A DNA stretch of 64,000 bases from a virus (IMGVR_UViG_3300002026_000017:1-64000); one strand, 5' to 3'. Counted from the first letter of the stretch, positions 8,680 through 51,600 are shown. Numbers and translations: made by a program. The notes: a model not told the origin generated them from the sequence alone.

Positions 8680-9273
8680 ATGGAAGATATAAACAAACCA
8701 GCAACAACAAAACAAACTTTCGCGTTAAAATTATCAACCGGTATTGATTATCGGGACCAAAATTTAAGTTTTGAGGAAGCATCAAAAATGATTCAGGAAG
8801 CAAATAAAAAATCTGGTTATCAATCTAAAAAAAAATTTTCTAAAAAAGAAAATATTCCAACAATACTTCAATACTTAGCTTCAAATGAATGTGTTGAAGC
8901 TTTGAAAAAAACTATTTGTAATGAAATTGAAATTAAATCAATTTTAAGTCAACATAAAGAAATTGAAGGAGCTAAAAAATATGTTTTTCTTGGTACTGGA
9001 TGTGGATTCCCAATTATTAATTGGGATAAAAAAAATTCAAGAGCAACCAGAACAATTGAAAAAGCAAAAGAAATTCAGAAAGATATTGATAATTTAGTAT
9101 GTCAATCATTTGACAAAGAAGTTGTTGATTATTTGAAATTTTTAGGTAATTCTATTGAAGCTATTATGACTCAGAATATGAATTATAAATCAACATACGA
9201 CCAATTAATTGTTGATTATTTAGAAAAATATTATCAAATCGAAGGCGTTTATGTTGAAACACGTCTTGATTGA
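8680..9273 (+). CDS. Hypothetical protein
   Basis: 197-aa ORF between promoter motif and terminator. Confidence 0.75.
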   Translation: MEDINKPATTKQTFALKLSTGIDYRDQNLSFEEASKMIQEANKKSGYQSKKKFSKKENIPTILQYLASNECVEALKKTICNEIEIKSILSQHKEIEGAKKYVFLGTGCGFPIINWDKKNSRATRTIEKAKEIQKDIDNLVCQSFDKEVVDYLKFLGNSIEAIMTQNMNYKSTYDQLIVDYLEKYYQIEGVYVETRLD

Positions 9274-9302
9274 TATTTGTGTTTTTTATTTGTTATATTA
9301 AT

Positions 9303-9332
9303 GAAAATAGCTTGAAATTTCAAGCTATTTTC
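9303..9332 (+). terminator. Perfect 30-bp palindrome, likely terminator
   Basis: GAAAATAGCTTGAAA|TTTCAAGCTATTTTC, 30 bp after stop. Confidence 0.7.
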
Positions 9333-9475
9333 TATTATATTTATTAATACACACCAGAATTTTAATTATATAAATTGAATATATCTGAAAAATCCATATA
9401 TCTTGATAATTGTATTGATAAATTGATATATCTAAATATAATCATAATTTTCTGGTGTGTATTGTTTATATGTAA

Positions 9476-9512
9476 AATTTAAGCTCGATATTATTAATAC
9501 CGAGCTTAAATT
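9476..9512 (-). terminator. Hairpin terminator for the minus-strand small ORF
   Basis: AATTTAAGCTCG-13 nt-CGAGCTTAAATT, 15 bp downstream of stop at 9528. Confidence 0.6.
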
Positions 9513-9527
9513 GTTTTTAAATTGTTT

Positions 9528-9683
9528 TTAATTTGTAAAATAAATTAATCCATAAACATCTAACAATATAAATATTGTTAATAATATCAATAGTGTTATT
9601 ATTAGATAAATAACACCTTCATAATGTTTACCAAATAATTTTGTTAAAAATTTAATGATAGATTTTTTTATATTATTTTGCAT
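9528..9683 (-). CDS. Small membrane protein, 51 aa (not in ORF track)
   Basis: MQNNIKKSIIKFLTKLFGKHYEGVIYLIITLLILLTIFILLDVYGLIYFTN; ATTATCATG leader like neighbours; own GGATA motif and terminator. Confidence 0.7.
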   Translation of the reverse strand: MQNNIKKSIIKFLTKLFGKHYEGVIYLIITLLILLTIFILLDVYGLIYFTN

Positions 9684-9695
9684 GATAATGTTTTT

Positions 9696-9720
9696 TATTT
9701 GTTATATTATATATATCCGA
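9696..9720 (-). promoter_or_regulatory. Putative phage promoter (GGATA motif), minus strand
   Basis: TCGGATATATATAATATAACAAATA reading toward ATG 9683. Confidence 0.6.
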
Positions 9721-10109
9721 TTATTTATATATTTATAAGTGAATTGGAATTTATTTTTTAATTAATTTCTGATACACACCAGTTATTATATGTTATATAT
9801 TGTTTTAAAAATTATTAGATTGATATTTGTTAAGATAACTATTAATAATTCATATAATAACTGGTATGTATTATTATATAATATGTTTGAAAACGAAAAT
9901 TTTATCTATATTATATGCTATATGTATACACACTGGAATATAACTATTTACAAATAATACACACCAGTAAAAATATATCTATTATTTCAATGTATCAATT
10001 TATCTTGATATATACCAATTCAATTGATTATGTTAATAGATTAAACCGGTGTGTATATGATTAACAGGTGTGTATGAATGTTATTATTATACTATTATAT
10101 TTATGATAT

Positions 10110-10284
10110 ACCTATATTATTATGATTAACTGGATATATATAATATAAATGATTGTTTGATTGTTTAATAAGTATCAAGAAAAAAATAATTTTAAAATAA
10201 TTTCAAAAATGCTTATATCTTTTAAATTAATCGGATATAAATAATATAACAAAAAAATTCACAAATTAAAATTTTATTATCATG
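10110..10284 (+). repeat. Promoter/leader block copy 1 (near-identical to 11291..11463)
   Basis: ~175-bp direct repeat with two GGATAT motifs, ending at the ATG. Confidence 0.9.
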
Positions 10285-10914
10285 GTAAAAGATGCAAAAA
10301 AAATCGTTGGTGCTGAATTAGAAAATGCTAATCAAGATGTACCGTTAACAAAAAATGTTAACAAAAATGTTCCACAATTTTCTGACCGTGAATGGTTAGA
10401 AAAAAATGACCCAATTGATTTTTGTGTTGGTGAAAATACAAGTTCAAAATTTGATGCTGGTCGTGAAGTTGCAATTCAAAATGGTTTACCAAAAGTTGTT
10501 GCAATCGAAATGAATGGTAAAACAATTAATCCTTTATTAATCTTGCTTGGTAAATGGTGGGAAGTAAAACCTGCTCGTGCATCAATCAAAAAAATGATTG
10601 ATGCTGAAGCTGAAGCAAAAGGAATCGATAAAGATGTTTATTTGCAAGTTAATCTTGCAACCGAGGTTGATGAAATTTCAGAAATGCAATCTGCTATTGA
10701 CCGTATTAGATATGCTAAAACGTACTTTAAACCACGTAAACCATTAAGCGATAAAGTTATTACAAAACTTGTTAAAATCGAAGGTGTTACTTATGTTGTT
10801 CCAGTACAAGCGTTTGAAACTTTAAAAGCTGAACTTGGTACCGACCGCGAAGCTTTAATCAAAGCAACAATTGAAATTTCAAAAGTACAAAATCTTGAAG
10901 TTGAAAGTTTGTAA
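10282..10914 (+). CDS. Hypothetical protein, likely highly expressed
   Basis: 210 aa; GCT/GTT/CGT/ATC-rich codon use like the capsid gene. Confidence 0.85.
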   Translation: MVKDAKKIVGAELENANQDVPLTKNVNKNVPQFSDREWLEKNDPIDFCVGENTSSKFDAGREVAIQNGLPKVVAIEMNGKTINPLLILLGKWWEVKPARASIKKMIDAEAEAKGIDKDVYLQVNLATEVDEISEMQSAIDRIRYAKTYFKPRKPLSDKVITKLVKIEGVTYVVPVQAFETLKAELGTDREALIKATIEISKVQNLEVESL

Positions 10915-11270
10915 AAATCAAACCTTGATGATTATTTTCATCAAGGTTTTTTCTTTATTATATATCATTACACACCAGTAAATTATTAATATATTTAATA
11001 TTGATAGTGGTTTGTCTTGTTATTAACTTAATGGTTATATATAACCATTATTTACTGGTGTGTAATGATAATATATAAGATATATGGTTATTTCGTAATT
11101 TTGTCTATATTATTTGATAAAAACTATACACACATGTAAATAATGATTGATTAACTATACACACCTGTAAATATTGTCTATAATCTTGATATATGAAATT
11201 AACAGGTGGTTTGTCTTGTTGGATTGATTATATAAATAGATTAAACCGGTGTGTATCATTAAATATAAGA
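10912..11270 (+). repeat. Terminator plus two inverted-repeat elements, copy 1 (repeated at 11992..12348)
   Basis: Direct repeat begins at the TAA; offset ~1080 bp; ~50-bp variable segment between the two elements. Confidence 0.9.
10920..10949 (+). terminator. Intrinsic terminator
   Basis: AAACCTTGATGA-TTATTT-TCATCAAGGTTT followed by T-rich tract. Confidence 0.85.
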
Positions 11271-11290
11271 TTAAAAATATTTTTGGAATT

Positions 11291-11463
11291 ACCTATATTA
11301 TTATGATTAACTGGATATATATAATATAAATGATTGTTTGATTGTTTAATAAGTATCAAGAAAAAATAATTTTAAAATAATTTCAAAAATGCTTATAACT
11401 TTTAAATTAATTGGATATAAATAATATAACAAAAAATTCACAAATTAAAATTTTATTATCATG
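11291..11463 (+). repeat. Promoter/leader block copy 2
   Basis: Near-identical to 10110..10284, ending at the ATG. Confidence 0.9.
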
Positions 11464-11994
11464 ACAAATCAAGATTCAAACGTTGCAGAAGTTATCGGAA
11501 ATGTAGAAGTTGTTAAATTTGTTAAAGTTGCGAAAGTTGCAAAAACAAGAAAATCAAAACAAGAAGTTTTGGTTGTCGAAGAGGTTATTGAAACAATTGA
11601 AACTACAAAAGTTAAGGTTGATAAAAATAAAGAATTATTTGCAACACTATCAAAATTAACAAATCTTTCAGTTGCTCAATTAAAAACTTTTGCTATATTA
11701 AATTTAGCAAAAAGAAAAGTCAAAATTAATTTGACAAAATTTTTAACTCAAATGATTTTGAATGTTGCTAGTTCAAAATTAGAAATTAAAGAAGTTGAAA
11801 GTAAAATCCTAGAAGATTTTCTAACAAAAATTTCTGAAAATTCAAATCTAGAAGTTGAACAAATCAAAGATTTTCTAATTGTTGATTTAGCAAAATCCAA
11901 TAAAAAAGTTTTATTAAAAGATTTCATGTTGGAAATGTTTTTCAATGTTGTTACAAATAAAAATAACATCAAAGAAACAATCGCAAAATTCTAA
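11461..11994 (+). CDS. Hypothetical protein with internal ~38-aa duplication
   Basis: TNLSVAQLKTFAILNLAKRKVKINLTKFLTQMILNV versus SNLEVEQIKDFLIVDLAKSNKKVLLKDFMLEMFFNV. Confidence 0.8.
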   Translation: MTNQDSNVAEVIGNVEVVKFVKVAKVAKTRKSKQEVLVVEEVIETIETTKVKVDKNKELFATLSKLTNLSVAQLKTFAILNLAKRKVKINLTKFLTQMILNVASSKLEIKEVESKILEDFLTKISENSNLEVEQIKDFLIVDLAKSNKKVLLKDFMLEMFFNVVTNKNNIKETIAKF

Positions 11995-12348
11995 AAATCA
12001 AACCTTGATGAAATTAATCATCAAGGTTTTTTCTTTATTATATATCATTACACACCAGTAAATTATTAATATACTTAATATTGATAGTGGTTTGTCTTGT
12101 TATTAATTTAATGGTTGTATATAACCATTATTTACAGGTGTGTATTGATAACTATTGAATATATGATTATATCTAAATAATCCATATAAATATGTCCAAA
12201 ACAATACACACCTGTAAATAATGATTGATTAACTATACACACCTGTAAATATTGTCTATAATCTTGATATATGAAATTAACAAGTGGTTTGTCTTGTTGG
12301 ATTGATTATATAAATAGATTAAACTGGTGTGTATCATTAAATCTAAGA
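11992..12348 (+). repeat. Terminator plus two inverted-repeat elements, copy 2
   Basis: Near-identical to 10912..11270. Confidence 0.9.
12000..12029 (+). terminator. Intrinsic terminator
   Basis: Same stem as 10920..10949, different loop (AATTAA). Confidence 0.85.
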
Positions 12349-12494
12349 AAAAGATATGTTTTTATATTGCCTATAATTATATGATTAATCGGATATAAAT
12401 AATATATACAAATAAATAATTTTATTTTTGTTCATAATATAATAAATAACAAACAATAAACAAATAAAAAAAATTAACGTTAAATAATTGAATT

Positions 12495-12758
12495 ATGATG
12501 TATGCAATAGAAAAAATACTTTCAGATACATTTATGGAATCAACAACATATATATATTTATATGAAAGTAAGGAATTAAGAGATGATGTATTCAATGAAC
12601 TTTTAGATAATACTAAAAATTTAGAATATACTGAAAATTTAACTTTTTCAGATGATAATATAAAATATTATCATGGTGGTGATAGAGTTGTAGAAATTTC
12701 AAAATGTGAATTAAAAATTTCCAAAAAAGATGATATTGATAAAGAAGTTTTTAAGTAA
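12495..12758 (+). CDS. Hypothetical protein
   Basis: 87 aa; GGATATAAAT motif at 12391; hairpin 12763-12791 after it. Confidence 0.7.
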   Translation: MMYAIEKILSDTFMESTTYIYLYESKELRDDVFNELLDNTKNLEYTENLTFSDDNIKYYHGGDRVVEISKCELKISKKDDIDKEVFK

Positions 12759-12762
12759 AAAT

Positions 12763-12791
12763 ATAATAACTTGAATAATTCAGGTTATTAT
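12763..12791 (+). terminator. Hairpin terminator
   Basis: ATAATAACTTGAA / TTCAGGTTATTAT stem with one G-U pair. Confidence 0.55.
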
Positions 12792-12995
12792 TACAATCAT
12801 TAACAATACACACCAGTAAATTAACCTCATATTTCAATATATAAATTTATCAGGTCAATCATCAAGATATTAAATATTTGGAAATATAAATTCATGTGTG
12901 TATTAATAATATATATTGGAATAATTGAAATTTCAACTTATAAATAATATAATTTTCGGATATAATTATTATAATCAATAAAAAACATTAAAAAC

Positions 12996-13256
12996 ATGAA
13001 TATATTTGAAAAAATTGGTATTAAAATTGGTATTAAAATGGGATTAATATCAAACAAAAAAATTCCAGATTATCTTAAAAATGAATTATTAATAATGGAT
13101 TTGTTATATTATCAGGAATTTACGAAACTTTCAACAAATGAAAGTATTTTATTATTTGAAAAAATAAAAGATAATTTCATTAATGAAATTAAAAATCGTG
13201 AATTATCTGCTAATGAAGAAATTGATATTATAAATAAATTTCATCAAAATAATTAG
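12996..13256 (+). CDS. Hypothetical protein
   Basis: 86 aa; GGATATAAT motif at 12958. Confidence 0.7.
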   Translation: MNIFEKIGIKIGIKMGLISNKKIPDYLKNELLIMDLLYYQEFTKLSTNESILLFEKIKDNFINEIKNRELSANEEIDIINKFHQNN

Positions 13257-13261
13257 TGTGA

Positions 13262-13300
13262 AATAAAAAAGCCGTTCAAAAATTGAACGGCTTTTTTATT
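13262..13300. terminator. Bidirectional intrinsic terminator at the strand switch
   Basis: AATAAAAAAGCCGTTCAA-AAA-TTGAACGGCTTTTTTATT between convergent genes. Confidence 0.9.
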
Positions 13301-15833: not shown

Positions 15834-18053
15834 TTAAAATTCACCAAATATTGAAGCTATTTCATCATCTAACGGGTTTGTGTCTGAAATTTGAAAAGCA
15901 TCAGATAATTTATTTCCATTAAGCAATTGTCTATTCATTACATTTTGATTGTCAGAATAAATATCTTTTAATGTATCTCTATCAAATTTAACACCTAATT
16001 CTTCACGAGAATTAGATAATGTTTTTAATAAATCTGGGTTATTTAATCTCCAATTACCAGCTTTGTTTGATATTTTTGTTTTATTACCATATTCATCTAA
16101 ATTAATAGTTTGTGTTTCAGTATTTTCTGAATCATTTTTCTTGATATTTATGAAATATTCGAAGCCAGCTTTTAATTCAGGTTTAATATCGAGAATATTT
16201 TTTAATTTTTTAAGTATCACATCTATTTTAGATGAAACAGCTGATTGTGAATAAACACCTCTTTCATTTTTAATTTCAATACCATCTGATTTAACCATTT
16301 CGGACCAAATTTCTGCTATTTCATTTTGTGTGTAAAATTTATCTGTATTTTCAACAAGTTCACCATCTTTATTTTTATAAAAAGATTTTTCGATTCTTGT
16401 TTCAAGACCATAATTTAAAACAAATATTTTTCTTTCGTATTTATCAAATATCCTTTTATTTGTAATTTTCTCTATACCAGTTTTTTTATCAATATCTGTT
16501 TGAAATAAATTTAATATATCTGAAATAGATTTTAACATTTTTTCATAAGCAATTTTACCTTCTAATAACTCATCAGCATTAATATCTTTTGATGATGATG
16601 AATTTTCAAAAATATCATCTGTTCCTTCTTCTTCTCCTCCAACCATACCACTAAATTCAGTAGCATGCATTGTTTTATTGATTTTTTTAATTCCAGATTT
16701 TGAATTATCATCATCAAATGATTCTTTGCCTAAAATTAATTCCAAAACTATTGATGGGTCTATATTTTCATATTGTGGATTATCTTTAATAAAGTTGTTA
16801 ATTTTCTTTTTATTAAAATGATTTATTGTAGCTATTGAGGAACCAGAAACTTCTCCTTGATAACCAATATTTAATAATTCTCTATCAATTGAACCAGATA
16901 TATAAATACTTGAAAATCCTTTAAAAGATTGAGCATGTTCACCTTTTAATTTTATTTGTGATGTTGTCCATTTATTAATAGCAACTGATAAACCTTCAAG
17001 CCCTGCTGAAACAGCATCATCTAATTTATTTAGTGCATTATATCTTGTACATGCTTTACGAGCTAAAATTTTAACATAATTAACATTTGATAATGCTAAT
17101 AATTCTTTAGAAATTTTTAAATCTTCAGGTTTTTCTAAATCAAAACCACTATCAAAAAGTATATCTGTTAATTTAACATTGCCAGATAATTCATCTTTTT
17201 TATATGATATTTCGGCTTTTATTGTATCAAGTTTATTTTTAATTTCCCAAGTTAATGGTAATGTGTTTTTTAAAGCTTTTGATATTTGGTTTAAATTAGC
17301 ATCTAAAACTTCTTGAACAGTCCAATCAATTATATCTGCTATTCTACCACATAAATTATGATATTCTTGTTCAACTTCAGTAATTTTTGTTATTTCCTTG
17401 TTTTCTCCACTATTAAATTCATCAAATTCAATAACATCATCAGTTGTTGAATTAAATTTATTATTTAATTGTATTCTTTCTCGATATTCTTTAACAATTT
17501 TAATCCACCAAGAAGGGGTTGCTTCATTTAATTCTATTTGGTATTTTTTTCTAAGCTCCGTAAGATTTTTAATTTCAGCAGAATTTTTAATCTTATCTAA
17601 ATTATCTAGTCTTTCTGTATTTGTATTTCCAGATTCACCATGTCTAACAATTTTTTTAAGTTCTAATAAATTACTATTAAGATTAAAAACAATCTGTTTT
17701 GATTTTTCGTAATTTTCTTTACTACCATTTTTCTTATAATTATCCATTTCATTTTCTAAAATTGAAATTTGATTTGTAATAATTTGATATTGTGGTAATT
17801 TTTTAATGTAAAATTTTAATCCTTCGGTTACATCATATCTAAGTTTATCAACATGAGATTCTCCAACTATATCTCTTTTCATTGCAACATCAAGCATTTT
17901 ATCTCTATCAATTTTTGCTTGGATTTCATCATCAGATAATACATCTCTCTTTTTTCTATTAAATGGAGTTTTTACTGCTGAAACTCCATTAATTTGATTT
18001 AACTCTTCTGATGTTGAGTTAATTAACTCATCAAATGTGATACTGTCTTTCAT
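15834..18053 (-). CDS. Large divergent sigma70-family-like protein
   Basis: Region-2-like DDAVSAGLEGLSVAINKW...SFKGFSSIYISGSIDRELL; region-4-like KYERKIFVLNYGL...TQNEIAE...SQSAVSSKIDVILKKLK. Confidence 0.65.
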   Translation of the reverse strand: MKDSITFDELINSTSEELNQINGVSAVKTPFNRKKRDVLSDDEIQAKIDRDKMLDVAMKRDIVGESHVDKLRYDVTEGLKFYIKKLPQYQIITNQISILENEMDNYKKNGSKENYEKSKQIVFNLNSNLLELKKIVRHGESGNTNTERLDNLDKIKNSAEIKNLTELRKKYQIELNEATPSWWIKIVKEYRERIQLNNKFNSTTDDVIEFDEFNSGENKEITKITEVEQEYHNLCGRIADIIDWTVQEVLDANLNQISKALKNTLPLTWEIKNKLDTIKAEISYKKDELSGNVKLTDILFDSGFDLEKPEDLKISKELLALSNVNYVKILARKACTRYNALNKLDDAVSAGLEGLSVAINKWTTSQIKLKGEHAQSFKGFSSIYISGSIDRELLNIGYQGEVSGSSIATINHFNKKKINNFIKDNPQYENIDPSIVLELILGKESFDDDNSKSGIKKINKTMHATEFSGMVGGEEEGTDDIFENSSSSKDINADELLEGKIAYEKMLKSISDILNLFQTDIDKKTGIEKITNKRIFDKYERKIFVLNYGLETRIEKSFYKNKDGELVENTDKFYTQNEIAEIWSEMVKSDGIEIKNERGVYSQSAVSSKIDVILKKLKNILDIKPELKAGFEYFINIKKNDSENTETQTINLDEYGNKTKISNKAGNWRLNNPDLLKTLSNSREELGVKFDRDTLKDIYSDNQNVMNRQLLNGNKLSDAFQISDTNPLDDEIASIFGEF

Positions 18054-23949: not shown

Positions 23950-24885
23950 TTAATATTTTAAATATTTTTCTCTTAATGATTCATTTAATTGCTGATTTTT
24001 TTGTTGTCCAGCTTTTTGTTGCTCTACAAGTTTTTGTTGTTGAGCTTTTTGTTGCTCTACAAGTTTTTGTTGTTGAGCTTTTTGTTGCTCTACAAGTTTT
24101 TGTTGTTGAGCTTTTTGTTGCTCCACAAGTTTTTGTTGTTGAGCTGAAGTTTGTTGAGCTTTTTGTTGTTGTTTTTCTCCTTCAACTAATTTTTGTTGAG
24201 CTTTTTGTTGAGCTTCTTTCAACTGTTGTTGTTGTTGCTTAGCTTTTTGAGCTGGTACTTGTTGAACTTTTTGTTGTTGTTCAAGTTGTTTTTGTTGTTG
24301 CTGATGCTTTTGCTGCATTTGTTTCAACTGTTGTTTTTCAGCTTGTTGTTGTTGTTTCAACTGTTCTTGTTGTTGCTTAGCTTTTTGAGCTGGTACTTGT
24401 TGAACTTTTTGTTGTTGAGCTAACTGTTTTTGTTGTTGTTGATGTTTTTGTTCTTGTGCTTGTTGAACTTTATCATCACAATTTTCTTCTTCATCTAAAT
24501 CTTCAGATTCAAACAAAAATTCATCATCATCATCATCTAAATCTAAATCTAAATCTAAATCCAAATCTTCTTCAAATTCATCTGATTCAAACATAAATTC
24601 TTCTTCTTCTTCTTCTTCTTCTTCTTCAAATAAAAATTCATCTCCTTCAGCAAATCCATCATGTTGACCACCATAAAGTGTTGACATGCTTGGGTCATAA
24701 GATAAAAGCATATCATCTTCATCTTGATTTAATTCAGGAACATAATCCAAATCTTGTTGATTACTTAAATCATCATCAAAATCTATAAATTGTTGTGATT
24801 CATTTAATGCAGTGTTTGCTTCCAATGAAATTTCATTTTCAACATCTGTTACAGATGTTATAAAAAAATCGGCAAATCCTTCCAT
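23950..24885 (-). CDS. Candidate prohead scaffolding protein (gp22 position), acidic plus Q/K-rich
   Basis: Between protease and capsid genes; poly-E/D N-half, Q/K repeats; two LNE|S motifs. Confidence 0.6.
   Translation of the reverse strand: MEGFADFFITSVTDVENEISLEANTALNESQQFIDFDDDLSNQQDLDYVPELNQDEDDMLLSYDPSMSTLYGGQHDGFAEGDEFLFEEEEEEEEEEFMFESDEFEEDLDLDLDLDLDDDDDEFLFESEDLDEEENCDDKVQQAQEQKHQQQQKQLAQQQKVQQVPAQKAKQQQEQLKQQQQAEKQQLKQMQQKHQQQQKQLEQQQKVQQVPAQKAKQQQQQLKEAQQKAQQKLVEGEKQQQKAQQTSAQQQKLVEQQKAQQQKLVEQQKAQQQKLVEQQKAQQQKLVEQQKAGQQKNQQLNESLREKYLKY
24011..24142 (-). repeat. Four tandem 33-bp repeats (KLVEQQKAQQQ)
   Basis: GCTTTTTGTTGCTCTACAAGTTTTTGTTGTTGA x4; a 138-bp-period duplication also at 24241/24379. 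Confidence 0.9.
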
Positions 24886-48681: not shown

Positions 48682-51600
48682 TTATTTCCTAGTTAAATCA
48701 TCAACAATAACAACATTCATTTTTTTAGGGAAATCAATTCCACAAGCATCAACAACTTGTTGTAATAAACTTATTACTGTAGCTTCAAAATCTGAATTAT
48801 TTTTATTTAATTGTGTTGAAGGTTTTTTAGTATTTTCTTTTCCTTTTTGGTTTATATTTGTACCAAATGTATTATTAACAGCATTTGTAAATGGATTACC
48901 AGGTATTGTATTTGAATTACTTGATGTTGAAACATTATTAAATGTTCCTTGATTATCTTTAACCATTCCTAATAATTCTGTTAAAGATTCAACAGCTTGT
49001 TTTAAATTTTCACCATTATTTTTTTCAATAAGATTTTTAATGTTTCTTTCAAAAGCTGTAGCTTTTTCAATATCAATACTATTAATATTTTTTGCTATAC
49101 CACCAAATTGGTCTTTAATAATTTTTAAATTATTTTGAATTCTTTTCCATTTAACTTGGTCTGAAAGATTATTTGTAAATTTAGTAAAAATATCATTCAA
49201 ATTTGTTAATGTTTTTGTTTCAGCATTTTTAAGTGAATCAAAAAAATGAACTAAATTTGATATTGAATCATCAATTAAATCGTTATCCAATGTTGATAAT
49301 TTTTTGAAAACAAACATAAATGTATTTGTCATAACCATTAAAGACATAGAAAAATTACTTAATAATGCTGGATTTGATACCATTGGAATTGATGAATATG
49401 TTTTTACAGATTCAGCTAATGGTTTAAAAGCATTACCTAATTGAGATAACATTTCAATCCCTTTTAATGCTGTTGAAGATTTAAAGGGATTTGTTATTAC
49501 TTTACCACCAATAACAAATGATGCTGAATTACTACCAAGAATTACTAATGGTTCTATTAAACATTGTAACATTGAACCTAAATTTTCACCTACTTTTTTA
49601 AAATCATCACTATTTAATGTTCTAACTCCACTTAAAACTAATTTACCATCTTTTACAGTATATTCATAAAATTTCATATTGGCCATCATTTGAATAACAT
49701 TTGCTATTCCACCACCAACACTCATTAATTTTGCTAAGGCTTTTATTCCATTTTCAGATGATTTTAATTTATCTTCGTTTTTAGATAATGTATCTGACAT
49801 CATTGTTGTAAATGAATCAATAACACCTCCTAATGAATTTATTTTTTCAACATTAAATTCCGTATTAGATATTGATGATAATACTTTTGATGCTAACCAA
49901 CCAGCTGAAAATATTGGTAATAATAAAACCGCTTTTGCTGCAATTTTAACTAAATTCCAACCACCAATATTATTAATTGAATTAACTAATGTTTTTGCTC
50001 CATTACCAAAAGCAATTATTTTATCATTATTTATTATTAATCCGTTTAATTTAGATAAAACTTTTGCTCCTAAATAAGCTGAAGTAAAAATTGGTAATAA
50101 AGCTATTGCAACACCAGCTGCAAATGGAACAGTTAAAATCATTTTTGCAAATCCCCAAATTAAACTACCAACACCTAAAATAAAATTATTAATTGATTGA
50201 TTATTAAATGACATATTTGATATTGCCCAAAGTGATAAAGCTCCTAATAAACCAGCAGTTACTATTGGAATAAATAAAGATGAACCAATAGCTCCTGGTA
50301 TCGCTGGTATCGCTAATGCAGCAAAACCTATAGCTAAAATTCCTGCTGATAATATGAAATTTCCAATATTTTTATAATTAAATGACATATTTGATATTGC
50401 CCAAATTGATAATGCTATTAATATAGAACCAACAGACATACCAATCATAGATAAAACACCAACACCTATCAAAGCAGCTACTGCTGGTACTCCAGCTGCG
50501 GCAAAAATAGCTCCTAAACCAACAAGAGTCAATCCAAAAGATATAGCATCTCCTAAAGTCCAATTTATTTTTTTGAAAACATATAAAGCCCCTGAAATAA
50601 ATAATATACCTGCTCCAATACCTATCATATTTAATGTTTCGGTTCCTTTAAATAATTTTAAAATTAATCCAAGACCACCAAGAAATAATAATGTTTTTCC
50701 AAGAGCTTCCCAAGGTAATTCATTAATAGCATACATAGCTAATACCATAATACCAAACCCAAATGCAAATGAAATCATAGCATTTTTTGGTCCCATTTTA
50801 TCAAAATTAAATAATTTCATTACTAAACCTAAACCAGCTATAAATAAAATACCTTTAATTAAAATTTCGTTATCTATTTCACCAATAGCCAATATTCCAA
50901 GTGTCATTAATCCAATACCTAATGCAAACATAACCATTGAATTTTTAGGTCCTTTTTCATCAAAATTAAATAATGACATAGTTAACCCAAGTCCCATAAC
51001 AAAAACAATCATTTTAAATATACTAGGCCATTTAACTATAGTCATAACAATCATTGCAAGAGTTAAAATACCTATACCTGTTGCAAATTGAATCATTTTA
51101 TTATTTGTTGCATTTCCTGAACCAATAAAATTTAAAGCTAATCCAAGACCCCCTATAAAAACAATCATTTTAGCTACTGATTCCCAATCAACAAATTTAA
51201 TTGCTAACATTGTTATTGTAAAAATACCAATACCTAATGCAAACATTATCATGGGATTATTTTTAATACTATCTGTTTTTGTTGAATTACCACCTAACAT
51301 AGAAAAACCTCTCAAAGCTAAATTCAAACCACCAATAAATAATAACATTTTTACTCCAGATTCCCAAGATACAAATTGCATAGCAATCATTGCAACTGTT
51401 AAAGCTAATATAGAATATCCAAGTTTATCAATATTGTTATTTTTTATTGATTTATCATCAGAAAATTTTGTTATCATATTTAACATTAAACCAATAGCAC
51501 CAATAGCTAATAAAAATACTGGGTTTATTACCAAAAATGTTAATAAAGAAAAAGCAAGTGTTAATCCTGATAAAGCAAGTGCTGGTTTCCATAAAGTTTT

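Follow-up and report, generated by a model that had tools for sequence, protein, structure and literature searches.

The closest described counterparts of the locus reported here are the PeSL regulatory cassettes of the T4-type phages RB49/phi1, PST and nt-1 (Arbiol et al. 2010, PMC2839356; Comeau et al. 2014, PMC4122927) and the morons of lambdoid phages, which are single genes with their own promoter and terminator (Hendrix et al. 2000, as discussed in PMC2839356). In halovirus HF2, dispersed intergenic repeats of 29-58 bp carry promoters (PMC8707807), and gene conversion has been invoked to explain the concerted evolution of non-coding repeats such as ribosomal RNA (rRNA) operon spacers (PMC8022953). 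The locus in question, at positions 9274-13300 of the IMG/VR virus record IMGVR_UViG_3300002026_000017, holds two small open reading frames (ORFs), ORF210 and ORF177, set between near-identical copies of non-coding DNA with promoter-like motifs, terminator-like hairpins and paired inverted half-sites, here called elements. The window that was analysed comprises the first 64 kb of this 83.6-kb record; coordinates refer to it, and features lie on the plus strand unless stated otherwise. Relatives are represented by ~40 fetched loci with ORF210 homologs (L numbers) and by G001, a complete 208.5-kb relative. Their comparison makes it probable that the flanks moved while the genes stayed, with non-coding regulatory DNA being copied from gap to gap by phage homologous recombination around an old ORF210-ORF177 pair.

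Two blocks, A and B, are the largest non-coding repeats of the whole 83.6-kb record in a repeat search. Block A (10100-10284) leads into ORF210 (10282-10914) and returns as block A' (11281-11463) ahead of ORF177 (11461-11994), the two copies being 95.7% identical over 185 alignment columns. In the identity profile, the last 25 bp 5' of the ATG are 100% identical, and the value falls to 55% and then 42% just past it. The original prediction, made from the window alone, had described a ~175-bp block ending exactly at each ATG, which this sharp fall confirms. Block A carries two promoter-like motifs, P1 (10112-10146) and P2 (10213-10247), and a leader ending in ATTATCATG; block A' carries copies of P1 (11293-11327), P2 (11393-11427) and the leader. 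At the other end of each ORF, the alignment and its profile show identity rising abruptly at the TAA (10912 and 11992), from 40% to 95%. The ~360-bp block predicted from each TAA thus holds for its starting point, but not as a single block, since two tracts of 95-100% identity (10912-11071 and 11115-11268) are split by a 45-bp spacer of 60-70% identity. Past these tracts, a similarity of ~80% runs through the first promoter-like motif, to 11328 and 12406, respectively. Tract 1 of block B (10912-11071) is composed of the TAA, a hairpin (10920-10949) and element E4 (10969-11064), and is 95-100% identical to tract 1 of block B' (11992-12151), with its TAA, hairpin (12000-12029) and element E6 (12049-12144). 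Tract 2 (11115-11268) contains a lone half-site (11127-11136) and element E5 (11158-11255), whose interior is 99% identical to that of E7; its counterpart in block B' (12193-12406) contains a lone half-site (12205-12214), element E7 (12236-12333) and a promoter-like motif (12371-12405). The looser order of terminator, element(s), promoter-like motif and single gene, described after 9273 and 12758, was also found there, with hairpins, GGATAT-type motifs and half-sites enriched.

With a start-to-start spacing of 1080-1181 bp, the structure looks like a tandem array. If a whole promoter-ORF-terminator unit had recently been duplicated in tandem and one of the two ORFs had then been replaced or had lost all recognisable similarity, such an arrangement would result. 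However, the two ORFs, of 210 and 177 amino acids (aa), are as dissimilar as had been predicted, at the sequence level (BLASTP E = 35) and at the profile level (profile-profile comparison with hhalign, probability 0.13%). Judged from these comparisons they are not paralogs, and each has its own orthologs at matching positions in distant relatives. Flanks that are 88-99% identical beside ORFs at chance level are incompatible with an equal age of both, and such a duplication is regarded as extremely unlikely. The repeats might also have been mis-joined or collapsed during assembly, as the record is a metagenome-derived fragment that is 36% complete (CheckV). Yet the block copies differ at many positions, with insertions and deletions, and independently assembled contigs from other samples (L010, L016, L044 and L050) show this architecture too, leaving an assembly artefact with a practically negligible probability.

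The ORF177 family lies directly 3' of the ORF210 family in eight independent loci, among them the window, L010, L050, L019, L042, L044 and L045, and this order includes relatives with ~40% ORF210 identity. In L010, synteny extends to ORF197, the small minus-strand ORFs and ORF86. An order kept in eight loci indicates that the pair is ancestral, and ORF210 and ORF177 would be old neighbours and not captured passengers. Their capture between the flanks, as put forward in the original prediction, was not supported by this comparison, a check that had been set beforehand; the self-contained promoter-gene-terminator units stood, the idea of passengers did not, as the pair is old.

A cassette platform would nevertheless account for part of the data. 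Here, standard flanks would pre-exist and unrelated ORFs would be captured or shuffled by flank recombination via 1.08-kb circles, as proposed for PeSLs. Every ORF is a self-contained unit, the direct repeats (~420 bp, 88-93% identity, 1080 bp apart) are good T4-type recombination substrates, and PeSL circles have been demonstrated in RB49/phi1 (PMC2839356). Among distant relatives, the gene content between ORF210 and a conserved convergent block (homologs of 165-aa, 119-aa and 739-aa proteins) differs widely. In the ORF210 tree, the window and L010 are sister (99/97) to L015 and L023, which hold other ORFs in the ORF177 slot, indicating at least one replacement directly after ORF210. Against such a platform stand the order of the pair, which is maintained down to ~40% ORF210 identity, and the fact that the lineage-specific part is the flanks, not the ORFs. 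In addition, the sole recent indel seen among 97-99% identical relatives, a 768-bp deletion between L018 (6921-7689) and L039, removes two small ORFs directly 3' of the ORF210 homolog through an 8-bp microhomology in the leader and the ORF end, outside elements and blocks. Among the relatives compared, no gene exchange had its breakpoints inside the blocks. The analogy with PeSLs is retained loosely, for the repeated regulatory DNA in a gene-variable region and for the slot replacement; no direct evidence of gene exchange through the blocks was found, and a cassette platform is considered unlikely.

The mobility of the flanks is suggested by identities within and between genomes. Whole spacers were read against a shuffle baseline of 0.40, and element interiors against one of 44% (maximum 55%). 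Within a genome, the first and second spacers agree at 0.87 in the window, 0.78 in L010, 0.70 in L044 and 0.68 in L016, whereas the window and L010 agree at only 0.52 for the same position. Likewise, the window spacer after ORF177 scores 0.88 against the spacer after ORF210 and 0.58 against its positional counterpart in a closer relative. Element interiors of the first and second spacer are 96% and 99% identical in the window and 85% and 93% identical in L010; interiors of non-duplicate elements are mostly near the shuffle baseline, with 65% for E3 versus E5/E7. This within-genome likeness of the two spacers appears to have arisen independently in L010, L016 and L044.

The direction of copying can be proposed from three further relatives. 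The second-spacer element interior of the window (tract 1 of block B') is 47% identical to its positional counterpart in L049, which is the shuffle-baseline level, in a locus whose ORF177 is 76% identical and whose terminator differs from that of the window. Versus the first spacer of L050, the same interior reaches 63%. As the second spacer thus resembles the window's first spacer, is at baseline versus L049 and has 63% identity to the first spacer of L050, the first spacer would be the donor and the second would have been overwritten. For the upstream blocks, L051 carries a double-promoter block 5' of its ORF210 homolog that is orthologous to block A, and in L050 ORF177 is preceded by only one promoter-like motif and by another leader, which argues that block A' is a lineage-specific copy of the ORF210 upstream block.

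Purifying selection on functional sites alone could, in principle, have held the products of an old spacer duplication alike, without recent copying. The identity peaks in the elements, with lower values in the intervening spacer, are in line with this, as is the weak conservation of promoter-proximal element interiors across genomes (54-73% versus the 44% baseline). A second-spacer element at 47% to its L049 counterpart and at 96% to the first-spacer element of its own genome is difficult to reconcile with it, since a paralog-specific and genome-specific pattern cannot come from selection on a shared function. Moreover, the same pattern is found with different sequences in L010, L016 and L044. 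Selection alone is thus very unlikely as an explanation.

From the observed layout of the locus, its conserved order of genes and the contrast of within- and between-genome identities, we infer a recombination mechanism in which two pieces would have been copied: the terminator with the elements, and the double promoter with the leader. The most likely agent would be the phage's own homologous recombination, by gene conversion or copy-choice. No match to a tyrosine or serine recombinase (PF00589, PF00239) was found in the 83.6-kb record or in the complete G001, which points to the general recombination system of the phage, as has been argued for PeSLs (PMC2839356). Because homology ends at unrelated coding sequence, identity would stop exactly at ATG and TAA. 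The likely anchors are two short shared strings, TAAAAAT at the stop codon and ATTAT(C)ATG at the start codon.

Several points weigh against this copying of the flanks. The event is not directly shown by any near-identical genome pair, and its direction is deduced from three short contigs (L049, L050 and L051). One long conversion tract does not fit, since the 45-bp spacer is only 60-70% identical; the copying may have involved two separate tracts, or the elements one by one. In L019 and L045 the whole-spacer likeness is at baseline (0.43), with a partial match of 77% over 229 bp in L019, and homogenisation is not universal. The promoter and terminator roles, finally, were assigned from motif and position alone.

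The elements themselves are built from the half-site TACACACCWG, which was found 20 times versus 2.05 expected, with 19 of the 20 copies within 9348-12902; a longer 15-nt form exists nowhere else in the record. In the locus, the half-sites form eight inverted pairs (E1-E8) and three lone half-sites. Element E1 (9345-9464, no strand assigned), with half-sites at 9348-9357 and 9452-9461, has hairpins on both sides. An E1-like paired element also lies between hairpins after the ORF197 homolog in L010, and a pair follows the L013 homolog too. Elements E2 (9773-9870) and E3 (9958-10055), with a lone half-site at 10065-10074, occupy 9770-10074 (no strand assigned) and are orthologous in L051.

Nearly all fetched loci carry the same kind of element around their ORF210 homolog. 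The count came to 127 elements from 29 loci, each made of two inverted YACC-core half-sites that span 84-91 bp (mode 88). The half-site sequence varies by phage, with TACACACCAG in the window, TACGCACCAG in L010, ACGTACCAG in L016, GCGCACCGG in L015 (48% GC), TGTCCACCGG in L018 (41% GC) and TTCACACCATAG in L019, and the 84-91-bp span is kept from 22% to 48% GC. All 14 exact half-sites of G001 fall within 3.5 kb. A search of IMG/VR for the exact paired-site pattern gave a single chance match inside a coding gene. The L050 element (222-325), aligned with window positions 10961-11073, differs by one insertion and one deletion of 9 bp each, and its half-site span is still 88 bp; these compensating indels point to a length constraint.

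Complementarity within an element is confined to its termini, and the interiors differ among non-duplicate copies. On folding, three of the eight elements were no better than shuffles (weak z-scores). Over the 127 elements, the mismatch of left and right halves is 1.57 within an element versus 1.69 between elements. Since two halves taken from the same element are no better matched than two from different elements, the halves would be independent copies of a motif recognised on double-stranded DNA, not the arms of a stem. The elements thus behave like double-stranded sites for a presumed binding protein and not like hairpins. A reading as RNA or single-strand hairpins was rejected on these grounds: only the termini pair, three of eight folds do not exceed shuffles, and there is no constraint on complementarity within an element. 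Regarding their position, one type (E1, E4, E6 and E8) starts 13-17 bp after a hairpin, and for the other, the distance from its end to the following GGATAT motif is 55-58 bp in five cases; L010 shows distances of both 56-58 and 38-42 bp. This placement would suit upstream regulatory sites as well as protein-bound sites held outside the transcribed DNA.

The element family looks undescribed and is so far unnamed. A tentative proposal is that it represents a new class of phage nucleoprotein site of ~88 bp, with a YACC core and phage-specific half-sites, found at one locus per genome and always around an ORF210-family gene. A co-evolving phage protein, possibly of the ORF210 family itself, would bind the sites, which would start local copying. 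Initiation at the sites would explain why identity is highest on the elements and lower in the intervening spacer. The locus might instead serve as a replication origin or a regulatory hub. Element E1 also contains a near-consensus sigma-70-type promoter (9415-9442, TTGATA-16-TATAAT), facing the right half-site and the hairpin at 9481-9510, and could yield an RNA of ~60 nt. In L015 (48% GC), 21 sigma-70-like matches were counted versus 8.6 expected, several of them inside elements. As the pattern of internal promoters is inconsistent across elements, these are noted as a lead only.

Each small gene of the locus appears to be a unit of its own, with one or more promoter-like motifs, a conserved leader, the ORF and a predicted intrinsic terminator. 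Six terminator-like hairpins were found versus 0.3 expected, and the GGATAT-type motif, a putative promoter, occurs 11 times in the 64 kb versus 1.1 expected, mostly 35-49 nt 5' of a start codon. The hairpins at 10920-10949 and 12000-12029 sit ~360 bp 5' of the next promoter-like motif (11313 and 12391), with elements between. Upstream, ORF197 (8680-9273) is a conserved neighbour, preceded by a GGATAT-type motif of its own (8643), with homologs at the matching position in L010 (68%) and L013/L014 (60%); it has no Pfam or PHROG match. The hairpin scan placed a terminator-like hairpin after it (9303-9332). A minus-strand unit (9481-9718) follows, consisting of the hairpin at 9481-9510, a 51-aa ORF (9528-9683) and a promoter-like motif (9704-9718), and small minus-strand ORFs are found at the matching place in L010, L011 and L013. 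Downstream, ORF87 (12495-12758) occupies a variable slot and has no homolog among the relatives examined. The motif and hairpin scans then give an AT-rich hairpin (12768-12790), element E8 (12807-12902) and a promoter-like motif (12938-12972), together 12768-12972. ORF86, with a homolog in L010, and a hairpin (13262-13300) at the gene-direction switch close the locus (12996-13300). A 739-aa protein (15834-18053), without a Pfam or PHROG match, is kept at the far edge of the locus in many relatives.

ORF210 belongs to a conserved phage protein family with 57 homolog clusters. Its AlphaFold2 (AF2) model has a predicted local distance difference test (pLDDT) value of 81, and fold searches found nothing convincing (Foldseek E > 0.1, VIA-align best Z 4.6, no match in the ESM Atlas). 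A second, shorter ORF210-family paralog lies ~4 kb upstream in many relatives, preceded by two conserved genes (L013:2377-2922, L015:1872-2438, L019:1059-1574; also L025, L040 and L044); the 83.6-kb record holds only one copy of the family. In L015, where both copies were mapped, no elements are found beside the shorter one, the nearest half-site being ~2.3 kb away. ORF177 is a member of a fast-evolving family and has an internal two-fold repeat in the alignment. A helical unit of ~45 aa is present in two copies here and in L010, and in one copy in L019, L042, L044 and L045.

The record encodes a tail sheath protein, a portal and a family-B DNA polymerase, identified by protein matches. The portal shares ~31% identity with its counterparts in Sphingomonas phage PAU and Tenacibaculum phage PTm1, and the G+C content of the window is ~22%. 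Based on these predicted proteins and this composition, the source is an uncultured, very AT-rich T4-like myophage. Genes run on the plus strand to 13256 and on the minus strand beyond, with the locus closing the plus block, and the 9.3-13.3-kb stretch is part of a gene-variable small-gene region. No DNA similarity to cultured phages was found for the region or for ORF210, Rfam and transfer RNA scans found nothing, and Pfam and PHROG gave no useful match for the local ORFs. Elsewhere in the record, internal tandem-like repeats were seen within a 1201-aa ORF (50748-51262) and near 24 kb (23998-24471), and an 88% repeat at the very end (83464-83644), beyond the window.

The locus can be compared with several known arrangements. 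Like integron attC arrays, it has unrelated ORFs split by imperfect inverted-repeat sites with conserved ends and variable interiors of fixed length. Unlike in integrons, there is no integrase, each ORF has its own promoter-like motifs, the element halves are not constrained to pair, and the elements occupy orthologous positions in relatives. An integron was rejected, as neither PF00589 nor PF00239 is matched in the record or in G001, the cassettes are not promoterless and no constraint for a folded hairpin exists. A reading as miniature inverted-repeat transposable elements, such as Correia elements, was likewise rejected, given that the sites are in one locus, interiors are mostly near baseline and positions are orthologous in relatives. 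No target-site duplication was seen on reading the element flanks, for which no formal test was made.

As in rRNA operon spacers, copies within one genome resemble each other far more closely than equivalent positions of different genomes do, but the converted units would here be promoter, terminator and element spacers around unrelated phage protein genes. Like HF2, this is a myovirus with repeated intergenic sequences that would supply promoters to many small genes; the HF2 repeats, in contrast, have no paired inverted half-sites or adjoining terminators. The single genes with, by motif, their own promoter and terminator recall morons. Morons, however, lack conserved flanking repeats, and their movement is attributed to illegitimate recombination, whereas the flanks described here are repeated and seem to evolve in concert, with ORF210 and ORF177 as stable residents.

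The analogy with PeSLs and their hyperplastic regions can be upheld loosely. In both cases, small genes in a gene-variable region of a T4-like myophage are bracketed by repeated promoter and stem-loop terminator sequences, and repeated regulatory DNA would serve as a substrate for homologous recombination, with no dedicated recombinase. A PeSL is one ~100-bp promoter/stem-loop composite, and about 50 sites occur per genome. Here, a stretch of 340-400 bp that includes one or two paired-site elements separates the two signals, and the high-identity blocks are in one ~4-kb locus (provisionally 9.9-12.4 kb of the 83.6-kb fragment). The evidence also differs, as it concerns regulatory DNA copied between gaps around conserved genes, not ORF insertion or deletion. 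The architecture is therefore distinct from that of PeSLs, in a distant phage group and with a more elaborate spacer. The idea of repeated regulatory DNA as a recombination substrate would be extended to this group, and the cassette picture would be reversed for this locus in a large uncultured T4-like clade, with mobile regulatory spacers and stable genes. The conserved family of 127 elements at 29 loci provides a target for finding the binding protein and for asking if recombination in the variable regions of phages is directed by sites with bound protein. If true, site-initiated copying would be a protein-targeted form of the shuffling on which Arbiol et al. speculated for PeSLs.

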